A DNA stretch of 64,000 nt from Eledone cirrhosa (lineage: Eukaryota), in assembly GCA_964016885.1 (NCBI GenBank), contig OZ024745.1, positions 124,434,001 to 124,498,000 of the forward strand, read 5' to 3'. The translations under genes were made by a program, and so were the position numbers. Position 1 is the stretch's first letter, and the number at the start of each line of letters is the position of its first letter. The notes under the pieces were generated by a model, which was not told the DNA's origin, did no database searches, and saw nothing but the letters and a program-made list of their open reading frames with translations. Shown one piece after another: positions 8,950 through 42,032 of the stretch.

Positions 8950-9661
8950 TCATGGTTTTTGATTTAGGCACAAGGTTGGAGGGAAAAGCTAACCACGGTG
9001 GGATTTGAACTCTGAACGTAAAGACCAGCAAAATAATGGTTTTTGATTTAGACACAAGGCCAACAATTTTTTTGGTGGGTGGAGAAAATCGATTAAATCG
9101 ACCCCAGTGTGTGACTTACTTTATTTTATAGAGCTCGTAAGGAGGAAAGGCTAAGCTAACCTCGGCGGGATTTGAACTCAGAATGTATAAATCAGCAAAA
9201 TAATGGTTTCTCATATAGGCACAAGGCCAACAATTTTTTGCGAGAGAAAAGTCGATGAAATTGACTCCAGTGCGTGACTGGCGCTTTATTTTATCGACCC
9301 CGTAAGGATGAATGGCAAAGTTAATCTCGGCAGGATTTGAACTCAGAACGTAAAAAGCAGCAAAATAGTGAGAATGATTCACACATAACTCACCATTTGA
9401 AACTATGACTAAGCTATCTTTAAAAAAATAATGATTTCTAGTATAGGCACAAGGCTAGTAATTATGGGGGACGGAAAAGTCGATTAAATTGACACCAGTG
9501 TGTGACTGGTGCTTTATTTTATCGACCCCGTAAGGATGAAAGGCAAAGCTAGCCTCGGCGGGATTTGAACTCAGATGTAAAAAGCAGCAAAATAGTGAGA
9601 ATGATTCACACATAACTCCCCCATTTGAAACTATGTCTAAGCTATCTTTAAAAAAATAATG
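8950..9661 (-). mobile_element. Tandem cluster of 5'-truncated Meta-SINE copies with a duplicated unique flank
   Basis: Four gggatttgaactc B-box blocks each followed by cagcaaaa; about 9270-9432 is repeated at 9510-9661. Confidence 0.8.
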
Positions 9662-9734
9662 AAAACTCTAATCACAAGAGAATATGTACACTAGCACACT
9701 GCTCCATTAGTTACGCTGACAGATAGCGTTGATC

Positions 9735-14641: not shown

Positions 14642-15518
14642 GATTAATTGATTGATTGATTCAGAGAAAGATAAGGCTAAATAACTATACACGCCAATAC
14701 ATATTACTAAATCTTTGTTGCCCTTCATATCGCCAATAGCGCAGCTAATAATCTCTGATAGAACAGCTATTTAGTCAAAAAGAATTTTCCTATAATATCG
14801 ATTTATCTGAATCTCGTAAATAACAACAACAACAACAATATCAACAACAATAACAATAATAATAACGGTGATGATAGTAATAATAATAATAATAATAATA
14901 GTAATAATAATGCTTTAGCAATCAACTAGAATTTTGGCAACGCTGAAAATAATATTAAGAACAAGTTTATTGGAATTAAAACATCTCGGTGCTATTGCTG
15001 ATTTTCAACACATTTCTGGTGTGTTGTGGGATGAATGTGTATCGTTTAATGCTCTAATGTTTTGCAAGTATAAAGGGAATCCTGACTTCGGTACTACGAA
15101 GAATATTAGCAATCTATTTACAATTCTCCACAAATAACAATTTAGATGGTACAGGGGGAGTCAAGAAAAACATAACAAAGAGCAGAACAGCGGAAACAAG
15201 GAAAACAAGTCTGAGAAGAGAAATTTATAAAGAATTACGAGGAAAGGAAAGCGTGTGAGACATTGGGAAAAAGAAGGTAAAAGAAAGATTAGGTTTTTCA
15301 ATTGTCTGTCAATGAACGTTTGGTGTTTTCTTATACTGGTTTTTGCTTATCTGTAGCTACGCTATGCTAAATATATATATTGTTATACTTTGGGAGGGTC
15401 ATGTTGCCAATAAGAAACACATGCACCAGTTGCTTTCACTTCAATTTATTATAATAAATTTATAAATTTCCGGTTGGTTGGTTGGTTGGTTCCACAACCA
15501 GATGGTTGTTTATATATT

Positions 15519-15561
15519 GTCAAAGTTCTTTCGTCACACATTCTGTGACCTCTTCAGTGAC
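15519..15561 (-). ncRNA. Minimal hammerhead ribozyme in a PLE pseudo-LTR relic
   Basis: Minus strand gtca-CTGAAGA-g-gtcaca-gaatg-tgtgac-GAAAG-AA-CTT-tgac; homologous to 24551-24591. Confidence 0.75.
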
Positions 15562-17348
15562 TGGGGATTCTTTTCTTTGTTTTTGTGCCTCTCCTTTGTT
15601 CTGTCCTACGCCATCTTGTTTCTATATAAAAAAAATATAGAGCTGCTCTTGTTCAAAATTGTGGAGAGTCATACAGTGCATTAGAAGACTGCATGAGTAC
15701 AAAGTAATGGGGAATTAAAAAATACATCAAGATACTCTCATGGGATGACAAATGAGGTTTATTTTTCAACATAGCCCCTGGTAAGAAACAATGCAGTTAT
15801 TAATTAGAAGAGTTGAAATAATTGCATGCAAGATTTCACAGCTCTAGCTTCACTCCTTCAGAGTCAGGCTATGAACATTTCAGCCGATCCTCATATATAA
15901 GAACAAATATGGAGTAAATATATTTATTCAATATATTGGTTGAAAATTTATTTTGAAACAACAAATAAATGATACACATACTTACACACGTGATTGACTA
16001 TTATGACAGTAATATTCTGTGTTGGGGTGCTCACATTTATAAATTCCAAATTCACCTAACGTTTCTTAAGCCATAAATGTTTGTTTACATTTCCCCTAGA
16101 AATATTATAGCATTCTAAGATGATGGGAAAAAGTGTCAGCAGCTTTGTAGCATTGTGGCTAATCAACTCCGACGGAAACCAAAAGACGCTATGTTCAATT
16201 TCTTGCAATCGTATCCGTTAGGTTTTCCCGTCCCAGAGGTTACTTTAATTATGTTCTAAACTTTTCCAGCATTTGGAACCTGACTCTGGGATCGGAAGCT
16301 CCTCATATATGTTTTAATATGCAGGCTCGCACTTGAGACTGATTCTTTATTCCTTTATATATTAATACTATATATATATATATATATATCCGGATCTAGC
16401 TGTCGAAACGGGCAGAGCTCAGCCGTCGGGGTCCTGACTCTTTTCCTATATATATATATATATATATATATATGCATACAGTCACACATATATGAAGATG
16501 CGTATGTAACACGAAAGTTGCGATGAATCCCGTTCAATGTGTGAGTGGCAATAATTAAATTCTACAATAAACCTTTGACAATCGTGTTTACTAGGAGTGT
16601 TAATCCGAAGGTGCGGATTATAGATGGTATTAATCCATCCGGTCTTAAATTCTAAATCGACTATTGCAATATAAACAAAGATTTGTCTGCGTTAGTCAGT
16701 ATCTGTGCTTGTGTTATGGTGTATGTACTTGTTCGTGTGTGTTTGAATAAAGTTATGAGTATATTCGGTACATAGATATAGCAATTAGTGAAATAGATGT
16801 AGCCACCGACACTCATTAATCTTTTAATGCGATGTGTTCATAATACGGAAATATTAGTTAGAAATAAAATGTCTTCATTCTTACTGCTACTATAACCTAC
16901 ATCATCACTATTACTATTATTACCACCGTGATCCTCTTTCTTTCATTATGATTGTCGACGATGACATCATTACCATCGTCACCACCATCATCCCCACCAC
17001 TACCACCACCACCACCACCAACAAGAACACTAACACCACTTATTATTCTGATAAATGAGATTAGTCATTTGGCTGCAATGATATCATTTAAGATTTTTTT
17101 TATAGTTCATTATGAAGGTGAGATTGATGCATGAGTAAAACGATGGAGACTGATTTCAAATCTTCCAGGGCTTTGTTATTGGACAGTTAATATATTTCTT
17201 TCTGTTATGTAGTTGTTAGAAATAGGTTTAGGAAGGCTTTCTATAATTGAGAAGACTGTATTTCTGATCTACTTAGTGCACCAAAATCCAGATTTGCGAA
17301 TGAAAAGACAAAATATTTCCCAATGTTGTAATTATATTCATAGAGGCA

Positions 17349-18712: not shown

Positions 18713-19276
18713 GGTGGTGGATTGGCAGTATTGGTAGAGGGTTGGACGCCATGCTTTCCAACATAGTTACGTCCCTTTATGATCTGAGTTCAAATCCCGC
18801 CGAGGTTGACGTTGCCTTTCATCCTTACGGGGTCGATAAAATAAAGTACCAGTAATGCACTGGGTAATTGCTGGACTTGTGCCTAAAGTAGAAACAATTA
18901 TTAGTAAACAGTATCGGTAGAGGGTCGGACGCCATGCTTTCCAGCATAGTTACGTCCCTTTACGATCTGAGTTCAAATCCCGCCGAGGTTGACTTTGCCT
19001 TTCATCCTTACGGGGTCGATAAAATAAAGTACCAGTAATGCACTGGGTTATTGCTGGCCTTGTGCCTAAAGTAGAAACAATTATTAGTAAACAGTATCGG
19101 TAGAGGGTCGGACGCCATGCTTTGACGCATAGAGTTACGGCCCTTGCTATACTGAGTTCAAATCCTGCCGAGGTTAACTTTGCCATTCATCCTTACGGGG
19201 TCGATAAAATAAAGTACCAGTAATGCACTGGGGATTTGCTGGCCTTGTGCCAAAAGTATAAACAATTATTAGTAAA
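18713..19276 (+). mobile_element. Tandem trimer of Meta-domain SINE
   Basis: Three ~180-bp units joined by attattagtaaacagtat; attattagtaaa also flanks both ends (18695-18706, 19265-19276). Confidence 0.9.
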
Positions 19277-24198: not shown

Positions 24199-24402
24199 TA
24201 CATGAATCAAAGTTCAGTTTAAATCATTTGAACTTTGAAACAACTGATGTTATTACATTGAGCTATTTATCTTACTGGTAATAAGATAGTAATGAATTAC
24301 TGTCTTTCACTATTTAGAGTTTAAAATATATATAACTATAAAAGGTTTTATTATATACATAACCATAAATAGTATCCTTAATACTATATATATATATATA
24401 TA

Positions 24403-24740
24403 CTTCGCTTTTGGATTTGTTTTGCAAAACGTGTGTTGAAGCAGATATTGTTATAATTTGGTACGATCATGCTGCCTGTTGGTTTTCACTTTAATTTATT
24501 ATAAATTTCCGGTTGGTTGGTTCGATAACCGGATGTTTGTTTAAATATTGTCAAAGATCTTTCGTCACACATTCTGTGACATCATCAGTGAGTGGGTTTT
24601 TATTTTGTGTTTCTCCTTTTTTCTGTCCTACACCATCTTGTTTTTATTGGCAGCATGACCCTCCCAAAGTATACCAATATTTGTTTCAACACACGTTTTC
24701 AGATAAGAAATCTTGCAAAACAAATTAAAAAACGAATTAT
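24403..24740 (-). mobile_element. PLE pseudo-LTR relic bounded by ~75-90-bp imperfect inverted repeats, with minimal hammerhead at 24551-24591
   Basis: Minus strand tca-CTGATGA-t-gtcaca-gaatg-tgtgac-GAAAG-AT-CTT-tga (palindromic AGATCT). 24403-24477 is the reverse complement of 24649-24738. (TA)n on both sides. Confidence 0.75.
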
Positions 24741-26048: not shown

Positions 26049-26190
26049 TTCACACTCCTCCTTAATCAAGTGACCTCACCACCATCTCTCCTCCCCATCC
26101 ACCACTATATACTTGATACATTAGATAAGATGCCCCACCACCACCCTCAACTACCAACTGAGACATAACCAGAACTGACCAACTTTATCT

Positions 26191-26242
26191 GACATTCCTG
26201 ATGATTTCATAAGAATGAAACAGTTCTAGTCCTGTAGAAGTC
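26191..26242 (+). ncRNA. Complete type I hammerhead ribozyme
   Basis: gacattc-CTGATGA-t-ttc-ataa-gaa-t-GAAACAG-ttctagtc-CTGTA-gaagtc. All three stems pair, predicted cleavage is after 26236, and (TA)n follows. Confidence 0.85.
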
Positions 26243-26430: not shown

Positions 26431-26970
26431 TATATATATACATACACACATATATATATACATATATAACATTAAATTAAACAACAGTTCTTCAACAATT
26501 GTAAGAAATTCCAACGTAGAATTAACTATCTCCATTATGTTGGAGCTAGTTCAATCGAATCTACTCTTTAATTTAAGCTGATGGCATTTAGAAAATCTCA
26601 GAAATCAATATCATTCCCTATATTGACCACTATAATATAAAAGGTAAAGGTATTTTAAAATTCGTAGTTTGTATATGATTCATTCACCAAACAATGTTAG
26701 TGATTTACCAAAAGCAATATACCACCAGATTACTCAAGTGACATATATTAAACAGAGACCTTTATCTGATACACCGATCAGTCCCAAACGTCGCACCAAC
26801 CTTTGAAAATGTAATGAATAGAAATTGAACTAGAACAATTGAACGAAAGAATTGGTAACGAAACCAAATAGATAACACTATAATTATAATACTGAAATGC
26901 AAAACACCCCAAAATGGGTATATATATATATATATATATATATATACGGTATATATATATATATATATAT

Positions 26971-27933
26971 GAACATAGACATAGAATATTCGAAAATATT
27001 CTGTATGTTTATAATAAACATTTTGAAGACCTAATCGCTATAGAATAGAATACGTCACGTATCACAATTAGATTCTCGATAAAAGCAAGGGAAGTAATCT
27101 ACGCGTTTCATTCTCGTTAGAAATCATCAGGACTACATATCCAGTGCTTTTATCGAGAATGACACAGCCAGAGACTTATAGAATACTTAGCTGTGTACAG
27201 GAACTGGTTTGAAAGAGCGGTTGCCGGTCCGGCAGAAATTAGAAATTGGAATAAATGCTCTGAAATAGCGATATATATGTGAACATAGACATAGAATATT
27301 CGAAAATATTCTGTATGTTTATAATAAACATTTTGAAGACCTAATCGCTATAGAATAGAATACGTCACGTATCACAATTAGATTCTCGATAAAAGCAAGG
27401 GAAGTAATCTACGCGTTTCATTCTCGTTAGAAATCATCAGGACTACATATCCAGTGCTTTTATCGAGAATGACACAGCCAGAGACTTATAGAATACTTAG
27501 CTGTGTACAGGAACTGGTTTGAAAGAGCGGTTGCCGGTCCGGCAGAAATTAGAAATTGGAATAAATGCTCTGAAATAGCGATATATATGTGAACATAGAC
27601 ATAGAATATTCGAAAATATTCTGTATGTTTATAATAAACATTTTGAAGACCTAATCGCTATAGAATAGAATACGTCACGTATCACAATTAGATTCTCGAT
27701 AAAAGCAAGGGAAGTAATCTACGCGTTTCATTCTCGTTAGAAATCATCAGGACTACATATCCAGTGCTTTTATCGAGAATGACACAGCCAGAGACTTATA
27801 GAATACTTAGCTGTGTACAGGAACTGGTTTGAAAGAGCGGTTGCCGGTCCGGCAGAAATTAGAAATTGGAATAAATGCTCTGAAATAGCGATATATATGT
27901 GAACATAGACATAGAATATTCGAAAATATTCTG
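26971..27933 (-). mobile_element. Left arm of hammerhead tandem array (about 3.1 x 310 bp; retrozyme-like)
   Basis: gaacatagac recurs at 26971, 27281, 27591 and 27901; minus-strand hammerheads at 27094-27136, 27404-27446 and 27714-27756. Confidence 0.92.
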
Positions 27934-29166
27934 CCGGACCGGCAACCGCTCTTTCAAACCAGTTCCTGTACACAGCTAAGTATTCTATAAGTCTCTGGCT
28001 GTGTCATTCTCGATAAAAGCACTGGATATGTAGTCCTGATGATTTCTAACGAGAATGAAACGCGTAGATTACTTCCCTTGCTTTTATCGAGAATCTAATT
28101 GTGATACGTGACGTATTCTATTCTATAGCGATTAGGTCTTCAAAATGTTTATTATAAACATACAGAATATTTTCGAATATTCTATGTCTATGTTCACATA
28201 TATATCGCTATTTCAGAGCATTTATTCCAATTTCTAATTTCTGCCGGACCGGCAACCGCTCTTTCAAACCAGTTCCTGTACACAGCTAAGTATTCTATAA
28301 GTCTCTGGCTGTGTCATTCTCGATAAAAGCACTGGATATGTAGTCCTGATGATTTCTAACGAGAATGAAACGCGTAGATTACTTCCCTTGCTTTTATCGA
28401 GAATCTAATTGTGATACGTGACGTATTCTATTCTATAGCGATTAGGTCTTCAAAATGTTTATTATAAACATACAGAATATTTTCGAATATTCTATGTCTA
28501 TGTTCACATATATATCGCTATTTCAGAGCATTTATTCCAATTTCTAATTTCTGCCGGACCGGCAACCGCTCTTTCAAACCAGTTCCTGTACACAGCTAAG
28601 TATTCTATAAGTCTCTGGCTGTGTCATTCTCGATAAAAGCACTGGATATGTAGTCCTGATGATTTCTAACGAGAATGAAACGCGTAGATTACTTCCCTTG
28701 CTTTTATCGAGAATCTAATTGTGATACGTGACGTATTCTATTCTATAGCGATTAGGTCTTCAAAATGTTTATTATAAACATACAGAATATTTTCGAATAT
28801 TCTATGTCTATGTTCACATATATATCGCTATTTCAGAGCATTTATTCCAATTTCTAATTTCTGCCGGACCGGCAACCGCTCTTTCAAACCAGTTCCTGTA
28901 CACAGCTAAGTATTCTATAAGTCTCTGGCTGTGTCATTCTCGATAAAAGCACTGGATATGTAGTCCTGATGATTTCTAACGAGAATGAAACGCGTAGATT
29001 ACTTCCCTTGCTTTTATCGAGAATCTAATTGTGATACGTGACGTATTCTATTCTATAGCGATTAGGTCTTCAAAATGTTTATTATAAACATACAGAATAT
29101 TTTCGAATATTCTATGTCTATGTTCACATATATATCGCTATTTCAGAGCATTTATTCCAATTTCTA
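27929..29166 (+). mobile_element. Right arm of hammerhead tandem array (about 4 x 310 bp; retrozyme-like)
   Basis: ctgccggacc recurs at 27931, 28241, 28551 and 28861; reverse complement of the left-arm unit; ends in (TA)n. Confidence 0.92.
28030..28072 (+). ncRNA. Type I hammerhead ribozyme of the 310-bp unit (also 28340-28382, 28650-28692, 28960-29002)
   Basis: gtagtc-CTGATGA-t-ttct-aacg-agaa-t-GAAAC-GC-GTA-gattac. Stem I extends through an internal loop into the 16-bp helix attctcgataaaagca/tgcttttatcgagaat. Confidence 0.92.
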
Positions 29167-29193
29167 TATATATATATACATATATATATATAC

Positions 29194-29225
<32 letters not shown>

Positions 29226-30206
29226 GTATGAATGCCTATGAGATAGTTTAAACGTTTATACGTCCATAATAAATAAAGACCAACTTACTTGGAAGCCAAT
29301 CAAGGGAATAATGAATGAGGGATATCTCGTATGAGATAGATAGGGAGAGAGATAGGCAGATAGCATGGTGTTTACCATTATATATATATATGAAATGTGG
29401 AAAACTTAATGTAATTATGTTATCGCATACAATTTCTTATACCAGAATATCGACAAAACATTGACTAACAAACGCTGAACTAGAAACAAAAGTAACACAA
29501 ATATAAAAACAAAAGAGAATGGGGAATATTAACGATTCTTAAAGTCTAAAGATGAATATGGTGAACACGATAATATAAAGGTGGAAATAACTAAAGTATT
29601 AAAATCGATACATCTTTGTATGTAACAACAAAATTACAATTACTCTCCAGGGATGAACTAGGACGTTAAAGAAACGTAAATATGGCTATTAAGGACTTAA
29701 TGGAAATAGAAAGTGACATTATCAGCACGATATTAAAAGGATTAGTTACAAACGAAACTAAATATTTCTTAGATCTTTCATTCATAGCGGATACTAAAAC
29801 AACTCAGCCCTTTTCCAGCACACCAACTACTGGTCAACATCTGTCTTTGTTTCGAACACACTGTGTCTGGGATATATTGCCCAGTATGTCCTCCGCTTAT
29901 TTGCTACAAAGTAATTGGGTCAGATGAAGTTTAGTGTTTTGCTTTCAGCAAATAACACGCAGTTATAATGCAGTATAAATTGTTTTTTCAAGTTAGAGGG
30001 AGATATGCAATCTTCTTCAGGATCGACGGAGGTCTAACACATCAAGTCAGAGTGGTAGGGGTGTAGTCATGTTTGTGGTACTCAGGGCCTATGAGAATTA
30101 GTTCCAGCCAGTATTTTGTTCTGGGGCTCAAGAGCTAAGAAGGCCCCACAGCAACCCTGCAACATCCATTTTGAGAAAAATCTTTACGTATTTCGGCTCC
30201 AAAATA

Positions 30207-40471: not shown

Positions 40472-41082
40472 CTTAACAAGATGTATGTGTAAGATAGGCC
40501 GAATGATTTCATGTTTACATTTACCTCATTAAGTAGATGCATCAGTACATTGTACTTTACAAATAGGCAGAAAGGCCAGTTGAAACCATTGATATATGAA
40601 GATAACTCTTCAATAATTGACTATTTGGTTATTGATATTTAAATGATATCTGTTTCCTTTAGATCTTTAACATACTTGTACAGTGTGGTTGTATTTTTGT
40701 ATATGTTTGGTAATAAATGAATATGTATCTTTGTTAAATCTCGTTTGATACCTTCAGCTAGATAAATAAGTTGCTCTAATGAGAATTCTTTCTAATTCGG
40801 AAAGATCAAACAAACGGTTAAAAATTACATTGTCGTTGTGAGACAATGTAGAAATGTCGAGTAGGAAAGGTAATTAGGGAGTAACATGTCAGGTATAGTT
40901 CGAAGGTATTGGCACACAGTAGAAAATCAAAATGTGGGGGGGAGGGGGGGGGAGAGAGAGAGAAAATTTAACTAGAACAATGACTCCATGGACTAATTTT
41001 TATTGTGGATTCTCTGCATTCAGATATTTATTTCTGAGGGTTATTTATCGCATCATTTTTACATTAGTAAGTTTTTAACTAT

Positions 41083-42032
41083 GTGCCTACAGGCGCTCAC
41101 AGCCCTCTACCAAGCGGAAACGGCAATCAGCGGAGACTCCACTTCGACATTCTATAGGGGATTAGTGGAGGATAAGTGCGACGACGTTCTCAGGGAAACT
41201 CTAGGCATCGAGGAGGACAAACTGACCAGTCTGTTCGGGAGGACTTTCTATCCAGGGCCTATGGATAACTTCCAGAGGTCTCTGGTCTGGCAGTGCTACC
41301 GAGGAGCTCTACCAGTTCGAGACAAAATCTACAGGCACGGACGCCCTGACAGAGATCCTGCCAAAAGGACCTGTCCAAGATGCGAGCAGGACATCGAAAC
41401 CGTTCTGCACGCAATTGTTCAGTGCCCTGAGATGACCGAGCTGTGGAATTATGTCGAACAGCTGTCACGTGTGGGACGCATCCAGTTGTCAACCGAGTTC
41501 GTCGTGAGGATCACCCCGCCGCCTTCATTTAAGAACGAAGGAGAGGCGGTTTTACTCTGTCTGGTGGCTATGGTAAAAGAGATAATATGGTGGACGAGGT
41601 TAAAAGGACTGAGGGCAAACACCTTTCTCTCCGGACAACAACTTATCCCTTTTAATTATCAATTCAGAAGGAAGATGAGAGTGGAGAGAAAGGTGCTACA
41701 ACCCAGTAAATTCGTTGAAAGGTGGGTGAATGTGGCGAAAATGGTCCGAGTGAATGGGCCTTCTCTGTATATAAACCTGTAGGTTGAGGAAGATAAACAG
41801 AGCGAAGCAGGAACACCTACAAAGCGTGTTCCTGGTGTTGAGGGTTGTTCTATCCACGGGGTGTAAAACAACCCTGCAGTAACGTTCCCCCCTATTGGGG
41901 ATTTCAATTGTTATTTTATTATATATAGTTTATTGTTATGTATTAATGTTAAAGTTATTTTTATGTAAAACCCCCGTCGTCACGTCTTCTCATGTGCCAT
42001 TTTTGTACGACCCTGTGGCAAATAAAGAAAGA
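41083..42032 (+). mobile_element. 5'-truncated L1/Tx1-clade LINE (zf-RVT C-terminal domain plus 3' UTR)
   Basis: ORF to 41782 reads WQCYRGALPVRDK...CPRCEQDIETVLHAIVQC...LWNYV...IWWTR; the 3' UTR ends aataaagaaaga. Confidence 0.85.

Follow-up and report, generated by a model that had tools for sequence, protein, structure and literature searches.

Head-to-head arrays of a hammerhead repeat in Eledone cirrhosa almost always have one of each of two fixed ends and carry identical variants in both arms, probably through priming of both target ends on a single RNA

A (TA)n microsatellite of Eledone cirrhosa is interrupted by an inverted array whose two outer ends differ, and the question raised by this locus is how such an array came to carry a tail on one side only. 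In the window (the whole stretch of DNA that was analysed, 64,000 nucleotides), Tandem Repeats Finder delimited at 26970–29166 a head-to-head array of a 310-bp unit with (TA)n on either side. Unit positions are numbered from window position 27929 on the + strand. The array is composed of two arms made of exact copies, a left arm of 3.1 units on the - strand (26970..27933) and a right arm of 4.0 units on the + strand (27929..29166), which meet in a 5-nt overlap (a microhomology join, 27929..27933). The left arm extends from an inner end at unit position 235 to an outer (3′) end at 267/268, the short start site, while the outer (3′) end of the right arm lies at unit position 308, the long start site. 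The left (TA)n target flank (26919..26969) is in phase with the internal TA run of the unit, and the right flank occupies 29167..29229. In the last unit, this internal ATATATAT run, a likely aid to primer alignment, is found at 29128..29135 on the + strand (unit 270–277), and the right arm ends 31 nt beyond the end of the run and 40 nt beyond position 268. The resulting 40-nt tail (unit 269–308; 29127..29166, + strand) lies between both start sites and is missing from the outer end of the left arm. The original prediction had described a tail of about 31–40 nt, as these two distances confirm, and had recognised in it the Penelope signature of a short extension absent from the inverted partner copy, a known feature of Penelope-like elements that is upheld here. 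The claim that the left arm begins exactly at the internal run was wrong: a T at window position 26969 replaces C269, and the templated part ends at 267/268, 1–2 nt short of the run.

Judged by its sequence, the array unit fits a non-LTR retrozyme, that is, a non-coding hammerhead repeat. A type I hammerhead motif was found in the first right-arm unit at 28030..28072 (+ strand), with CUGAUGA from 28036 and GAAA at 28057–28060; it has a 2-bp stem III with a palindromic loop, and the pairing as read from the letters predicts a cut after 28066. In unit coordinates, CUGAUGA is located at 108 and GAAA at 129, and the predicted cut follows 138. Further copies of the motif are positioned at 28346, 28656 and 28966 on the + strand and at 27750, 27440 and 27130 on the - strand, such that the core motifs were present in 7/7 covering units (stems read by hand). 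The motif matches the canonical metazoan form as given in the available part of PMC4209133. An Rfam scan of the sequence yielded no hammerhead match, only microRNA matches to (TA)n that were far under their cut-offs. The unit size (310 bp) and G+C content (110/310) lie within the retrozyme ranges of 150–450 bp and GC under 50%, and its copies are dispersed, with about 1,600 termini per kind on many contigs. The array has no ORF of at least 150 aa and the unit no ORF with RT and GIY-YIG domains, so it is not an autonomous Penelope-like element. A contig that closed on itself after 310 nt in three runs was rejected as evidence for a circle, because a tandem array gives the same result.

The asymmetry of the ends is a property of the family. 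Search patterns that were anchored ahead of each site and required ten A/T letters after it detected 1,572 short-type and 1,618 long-type termini genome-wide, a ratio near 1:1, and the control patterns gave 0 matches; because these patterns require an A/T flank, loci recovered through unit similarity were used to assess target choice. Among the matches listed for the first 172 Mb of contig 1 (the first 100 of each end type, of which 38 short and 32 long ends were unpaired), all 62 of the 62 head-to-head pairs combined a short with a long end, compared with a mean of 31 and a maximum of 48 mixed pairs in 100,000 shuffles. A set of 139 insertions was compiled from the window, 58 of the 62 pairs (of the other four, two were already in the set and two were omitted as too long), 20 of the 38 lone short ends, 20 of the 32 lone long ends and 40 loci. 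This set contained 112 two-armed, head-to-head insertions and 27 without a partner arm within the DNA examined. By a tally made by hand, short and long ends were combined in 111/112 of the two-armed insertions, and the second arm of the sole exception, L249, breaks off at 191. Within this set, mixed ends were observed in 28/28 insertions found by unit similarity alone and in 25/26 reached from a single end. Long ends ranged from 293 to 310 with a mode at 303/304 (71/121), which corresponds to a usual tail of about 35 nt (modal 35–36); the long end at 308 in the window is a minority form (11/121). Short-end positions under 260 were a product of the fallback reference and not real ends. The arm counts exclude the 3-kb loci L083–L172, the second arm of L049, a local duplication, was excluded from the variant counts, and the cluster L055–L066 on contig 14 was left out of all counts. 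The check on the termini of genomic copies proposed with the original prediction therefore bears out the asymmetry, since the endpoints are fixed and paired and not random. A strict rule of one start site per end is what the 310-bp family adds to the known tail. The contig 14 cluster (25.02–25.32 Mb) was also considered as an autonomous partner and rejected: it is a block with several retrozyme arms that is repeated many times, forming a higher-order array. Three single-armed copies (L034:4125, L068:4546 and L031:4115) have (TA)n adjoining their 5′ end as well, and the joining point in L034 is the internal run.

The original prediction had attributed the position of the ends to the TA run of the unit, which would anneal to nicked (TA)n, prime reverse transcription and cause the microsatellite targeting. 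We regard this model as unlikely, although the priming part of it is partly sustained. The TA phase of the flank matched that of the unit run at 115 of 128 short ends (opposite in 5, unclear in 8), and C269 was kept at 34, as simple annealing would predict. The run is predicted to be mostly single-stranded, it is kept in a sister family that is about 70% alike (9 mixed and 2 long + long pairs, counted by hand), and in L046, where it is mutated in all units, the short end has moved to 261–264. In the available text of PMC8557442, endonuclease-less relatives are described to prime by annealing to telomeric repeats. However, 94/128 short ends stop before the run, mostly at 267/268: beside the 34, there were 72 junctions with C267 but without C269, 19 that were earlier or different and 3 with a non-templated base, and in one subfamily C269 was lacking at 126 and kept at 55 junctions genome-wide. 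A fixed cut with one terminal base pair would, moreover, equally give a fixed phase. A primer that is paired to the run, and whose final T reaches A268 across a single mismatch, would yield the commonest junction; the run may thus steady the primer, but something else sets the site. The other part of the model, in which the run explains the microsatellite targeting, was not upheld. Arm ends were TA-flanked in 65/69 cases among loci found regardless of flank (9.7% for random window positions), and long ends, which lack the run, are equally located in (TA)n with a homology of 0–2 nt only. L046 has (TA)n at both ends despite its mutated run, and in a related run-less family, whose longest TA run at that place is 4 nt, both ends recur at an unchanged distance from an upstream motif common to the families, the second about 40 nt further, with 14/28 termini beside a TA run of at least 8 nt (background 12%; the family is older and hence noisier). 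At the long end, the modal junction tracks an AT dinucleotide: a T at 303 in the template gave one junction (49:0) and an A there a 1-nt shift (19:0), a pattern that suggests terminal pairing by a primer with AT at its end. As a whole, the TA run probably aids primer alignment at one of the two ends, and (TA)n targeting is more likely the work of the endonuclease, as proposed for Neptune, Naiad and Hydra (PMC8557442, in part); a target-site duplication cannot be read inside (TA)n. It is similarly doubtful that the run is mainly a TATA-like promoter box, placed some 30 nt ahead of the initiator-like stretch at unit 299–305. The spacing read from the sequence would suit a promoter, and a TATATATA box is noted for the pLTR of a rotifer Penelope in part of PMC3846280, but the run-less family has no such box; a promoter role could also be compatible with our preferred explanation, namely the priming of both cut ends at two fixed sites on one RNA.

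The nature of this RNA was examined through the variants of the arms. At fixed sites compared arm against arm in the 139 insertions, 133 non-consensus states were concordant and 0 discordant, and many haplotypes coexist. The array in the window differs from the subfamily majority by four A>G changes on the + strand, at 27997, 28051, 28103 and 28192 (unit 69, 123, 175 and 264), each of which is present in 7/7 covering units and in both arms; A was read at 27997, 28103 and 28192 in four public runs. Variants private to one insertion and present in all of its units numbered 38, with 25 A>G against 3 T>C on the ribozyme strand, whereas single-unit variants were balanced (19 A>G, 31 T>C; Fisher P 1e-5 for the comparison of the two classes). 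Counted as distinct alleles (77), there were 40 A>G versus 6 T>C, with two clusters. One cluster, L040, has eight A>G changes across hammerhead stem II and GAAA in 5/5 copies of both arms; searched across the genome, a pattern with G fixed at 131 matched these five copies only. The other, L046, has 12 A>G changes in all 7–9 copies of both arms, and its marker gave eight matches, all at L046. Without L040 and L046, the excess was 7 versus 3 (P 0.10). ADAR editing is expected to show a 5′-neighbour bias (a lack of G) and a double-stranded context. A lack of 5′ G was not seen at the changed sites (4/25 vs 15/92), and the changed A's were not enriched in predicted stems of the monomer fold (unpaired 0.37 vs 0.41). 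Thus, A-to-I (ADAR) editing of the template RNA is probable but not proven, with the strand-specific clustered A>G present and the neighbour and stem context absent.

The simplest account of a change that arose once on one molecule and recurs in all units of the two arms is a single monomer circle that was copied many times over from the two target ends. Monomer circles cannot be the template in all cases, because L218 and L195 require either a template of several units or a switch of template made jointly by the arms; in L218, both arms change haplotype after the same two units, with a common haplotype in the outer two and another in the inner units. Both insertions still indicate a common molecule that was read in register by the two arms. 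They also favor an alternative in which twin priming takes place on linear RNA in every case, namely a multi-unit transcript read through a source array, and the circles are bystanders, and uncleaved RNA is the main substrate in vitro (PMC11167929, in part). We nevertheless give this alternative a low probability. The identical changes in every unit of L040 and L046 need a single-unit template that was copied repeatedly at some step, and the genome-wide marker patterns found no source array of these haplotypes, although such arrays could be absent from the assembly, which is one point against our preferred explanation. In addition, 144/210 arms are longer than two units, and inner breaks are not favored at the ribozyme cut site (6/210 vs 11.5 expected). 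As a separate observation, two variants recur together seven units apart in L181:1168–7048, which suggests a multi-unit circle or a later duplication.

The longer arm may be of either end type. Among 105 insertions, the short-end arm was longer in 57 and shorter in 48, and the lengths of the two arms were correlated (rho 0.47, n=105; 0.32 within the larger subfamily, computed with L040 and L046 in the wrong subfamily). This symmetry and correlation fit two simultaneous enzymes and not a fold-back, in which a single priming would be followed by self-priming of the cDNA and the second end would be joined via the TA run. A fold-back would explain the shared haplotypes and the correlated arm lengths, and self-priming is proposed for Penelope palindromes in the available part of PMC3846280, but it makes one fixed arm type always shorter, and a join through the run would keep C269, which is absent from most junctions. 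Because the arm lengths are symmetric, it is already largely refuted, and we consider it highly improbable. At the center, overlaps of at least 2 nt (taken from BLAST ends and perhaps somewhat long) were present in 67% of the 83 junctions without inserted bases, compared with 18% by chance; inserted bases were found at 22/105 joins. Tandem and palindromic DNA is prone to gene conversion and to assembly artefacts, and 18 variants occur in some but not all units, but later homogenisation by gene conversion among units or arms, assembly smoothing or fold-back artefacts is scarcely credible, as 177 substitutions confined to one unit remain among about 1,000 unit-equivalents, a DNA-level change would not favor A>G on the ribozyme strand of the two arms alike, and a fold-back artefact would not give differing flanks and differing ends per insertion.

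The insertions thus have two fixed ends, one of each, a haplotype shared between the arms, microhomology joins and an A>G excess. We postulate, with a probability of roughly 0.7, that a borrowed Penelope-like RT/endonuclease cuts both strands of (TA)n and primes the two cut ends at two fixed sites on a single RNA, which is often a monomer circle that the enzyme likely copies through repeated rounds. The array would be transcribed, and the RNA would cleave itself after unit position 138 and circularise, some molecules being A-to-I edited. A dimeric enzyme may bind near the conserved motif at about unit 195–255 and cut (TA)n, leaving ends in ...AT-3′. Synthesis at one end would then start at 267–270, where pairing to the AUAUAUAU run steadies the primer, and at the other end at 301–310, on an AU match of 1–2 nt. 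Both cDNAs would grow over many units until microhomology lets their 3′ ends anneal, each then priming second-strand synthesis on the other, the expected outcome being a head-to-head array with a tail on one side only. Weighing against this explanation are the two long + long pairs of the sister family, the 27 insertions with no partner arm in the DNA examined, and the in vitro results, in which the strands did not differ in start site and hammerhead cleavage was dispensable (PMC11167929). The more specific version of this reading, double rolling-circle reverse transcription by an asymmetric Penelope-like dimer on one circular RNA with the edits written into every unit, has in our judgment slightly better than an even chance of being correct.

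The enzyme that would be borrowed was sought among 10,595 GIY-YIG candidates in the genome, which include long ORFs with a zinc finger before the nuclease that we take to be Neptune-like. A partner Penelope-like enzyme was not found, as the shared motif was in none of the 3′ regions examined: in 20 regions downstream of Penelope-like ORFs no alignment was clearly above shuffles, and at 50 GIY-YIG loci among the candidates no shared motif was tied to an ORF; in neither set was there similarity between the unit and the pLTR of an autonomous Penelope-like family. ORFs near the insertions had no Pfam match save one zf-RVT, and two were Penelope-like by atlas features only. L069 was rejected as a partner, because it is a separate hammerhead family adjoining an unrelated decayed ORF. 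Long Penelope-like ORFs that are candidate mobilisers were observed at L374:2380–5193 (938 aa), L376:1775–5062 (1,096 aa) and L240:1201–4089 (963 aa); L382 and L377 also belong to this set, which includes head-to-head coding copies.

In the twin priming of L1, one RNA serves as template for primers at two target ends, and an inversion results when the cDNAs are joined through microhomology; the second primer lands at variable internal sites. The present arrays differ in that both start sites are fixed and the template repeats. In telomerase, an internal RNA stretch matches a simple-repeat primer. The same is described for Athena/Coprina in part of PMC8557442; in contrast to both, annealing is only accessory here and the insertion is two-ended. 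The Poseidon enzyme PAc, a predicted dimer with an AT-rich cut site, cuts and extends both strands in vitro, with two internal start sites that bound the tail, and requires no hammerhead cleavage; its start sites, as described in the available portion of PMC11167929, are the same on both strands and lack target homology. By comparison, the long junction of the arrays is determined by 1–2 nt of terminal pairing, the short junction adjoins an 8-nt run, and each end uses its own one of the two sites. Penelope-like elements show a 30–40 bp extension at one end only, an inverted 5′-truncated copy, (TA)n targets and microhomology joins (PMC8557442, PMC3846280, both in part). The one-end tail, inverted copy, microsatellite target and microhomology joins are all present in the array family, which, unlike those elements, has no ORF and is multi-unit in both arms. 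Furthermore, the tail is optional in Penelope-like elements according to the same portions of these papers, whereas here it is found on exactly one arm in 111/112 insertions. For metazoan non-LTR retrozymes, it is proposed that a Penelope-like enzyme copies circular RNA (PMC7229834; bioRxiv 10.64898/2026.07.22.740005, both in part). The array family resembles them in being non-coding and dispersed, with tandem units near 300 bp in length, a GC content below 45% and a single type I hammerhead in each unit, as described in the available parts of that literature. Unlike the published retrozymes, it is mostly head to head, with fixed paired ends and per-molecule marks in every unit. The word "inverted" does not occur in the main text of PMC7229834, and the step from circle to tandem cDNA is proposed but not shown in the available portions of PMC7229834, PMC4209133 and bioRxiv 10.64898/2026.07.22.740005.

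The tail itself was already known, and what is notable is that the identical variants in both arms are new and provide genomic evidence for twin priming on one RNA. The available portions of PMC8557442 and PMC11167929 state the origin of Penelope-like tails and of tandem and inverted insertions as open. In the literature searched, which leaves aside supplementary data and mostly subscription papers, we found no account of a one-per-end pairing of start sites, nor of edited retrozyme templates fixed in genomic arrays. If the circle reading is true, this would be the first genomic trace of the insertion of a ribozyme circle; ribozyme circles would then be actual templates and RNA editing a source of heritable retrozyme variation, and double rolling-circle copying would explain the tailed, tandem and inverted Penelope-like forms together. 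The reading makes sharp predictions (a single start site at each end, a template common to the two, and 1–2 nt of terminal pairing), and about 1,600 young insertions with natural single-molecule marks offer a cheap genomic test.

Further observations concern related and neighboring repeats. At least four related hammerhead repeat families share the upstream motif and the short end, and three of them also the long end; related families are found at L033, L284–L313, L320–L343, L080, L114 and L345, and two have 1,329 and 2,359 search candidates, respectively. Another hammerhead-bearing family ends in (TA)n with short and long ends of its own. In the window, the hammerhead of another family (CUGAUGA at 26198) is located at 26160–26240, just ahead of a (TA)n tract, and similar stretches were seen at L035:6861–7087, L378:5264 and L379:1775. 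The 3′ fragments of a hammerhead-bearing Penelope-like family lie at 24400–24740 and 15370–15620 (- strand), the former head to head with the long end seemingly on both arms. Within the array, at 29128–29163, the TA run precedes, by about 30 nt, an initiator-like stretch located where the modal long end falls. Elsewhere in the window, a SINE-like repeat, presumably similar to cephalopod SINEs, occurs in tandem at 8985–9662 and 18726–19276 (periods of 165, 228 and 183 bp), and a LINE-like fragment with a zf-RVT match was detected at 40997–41782.
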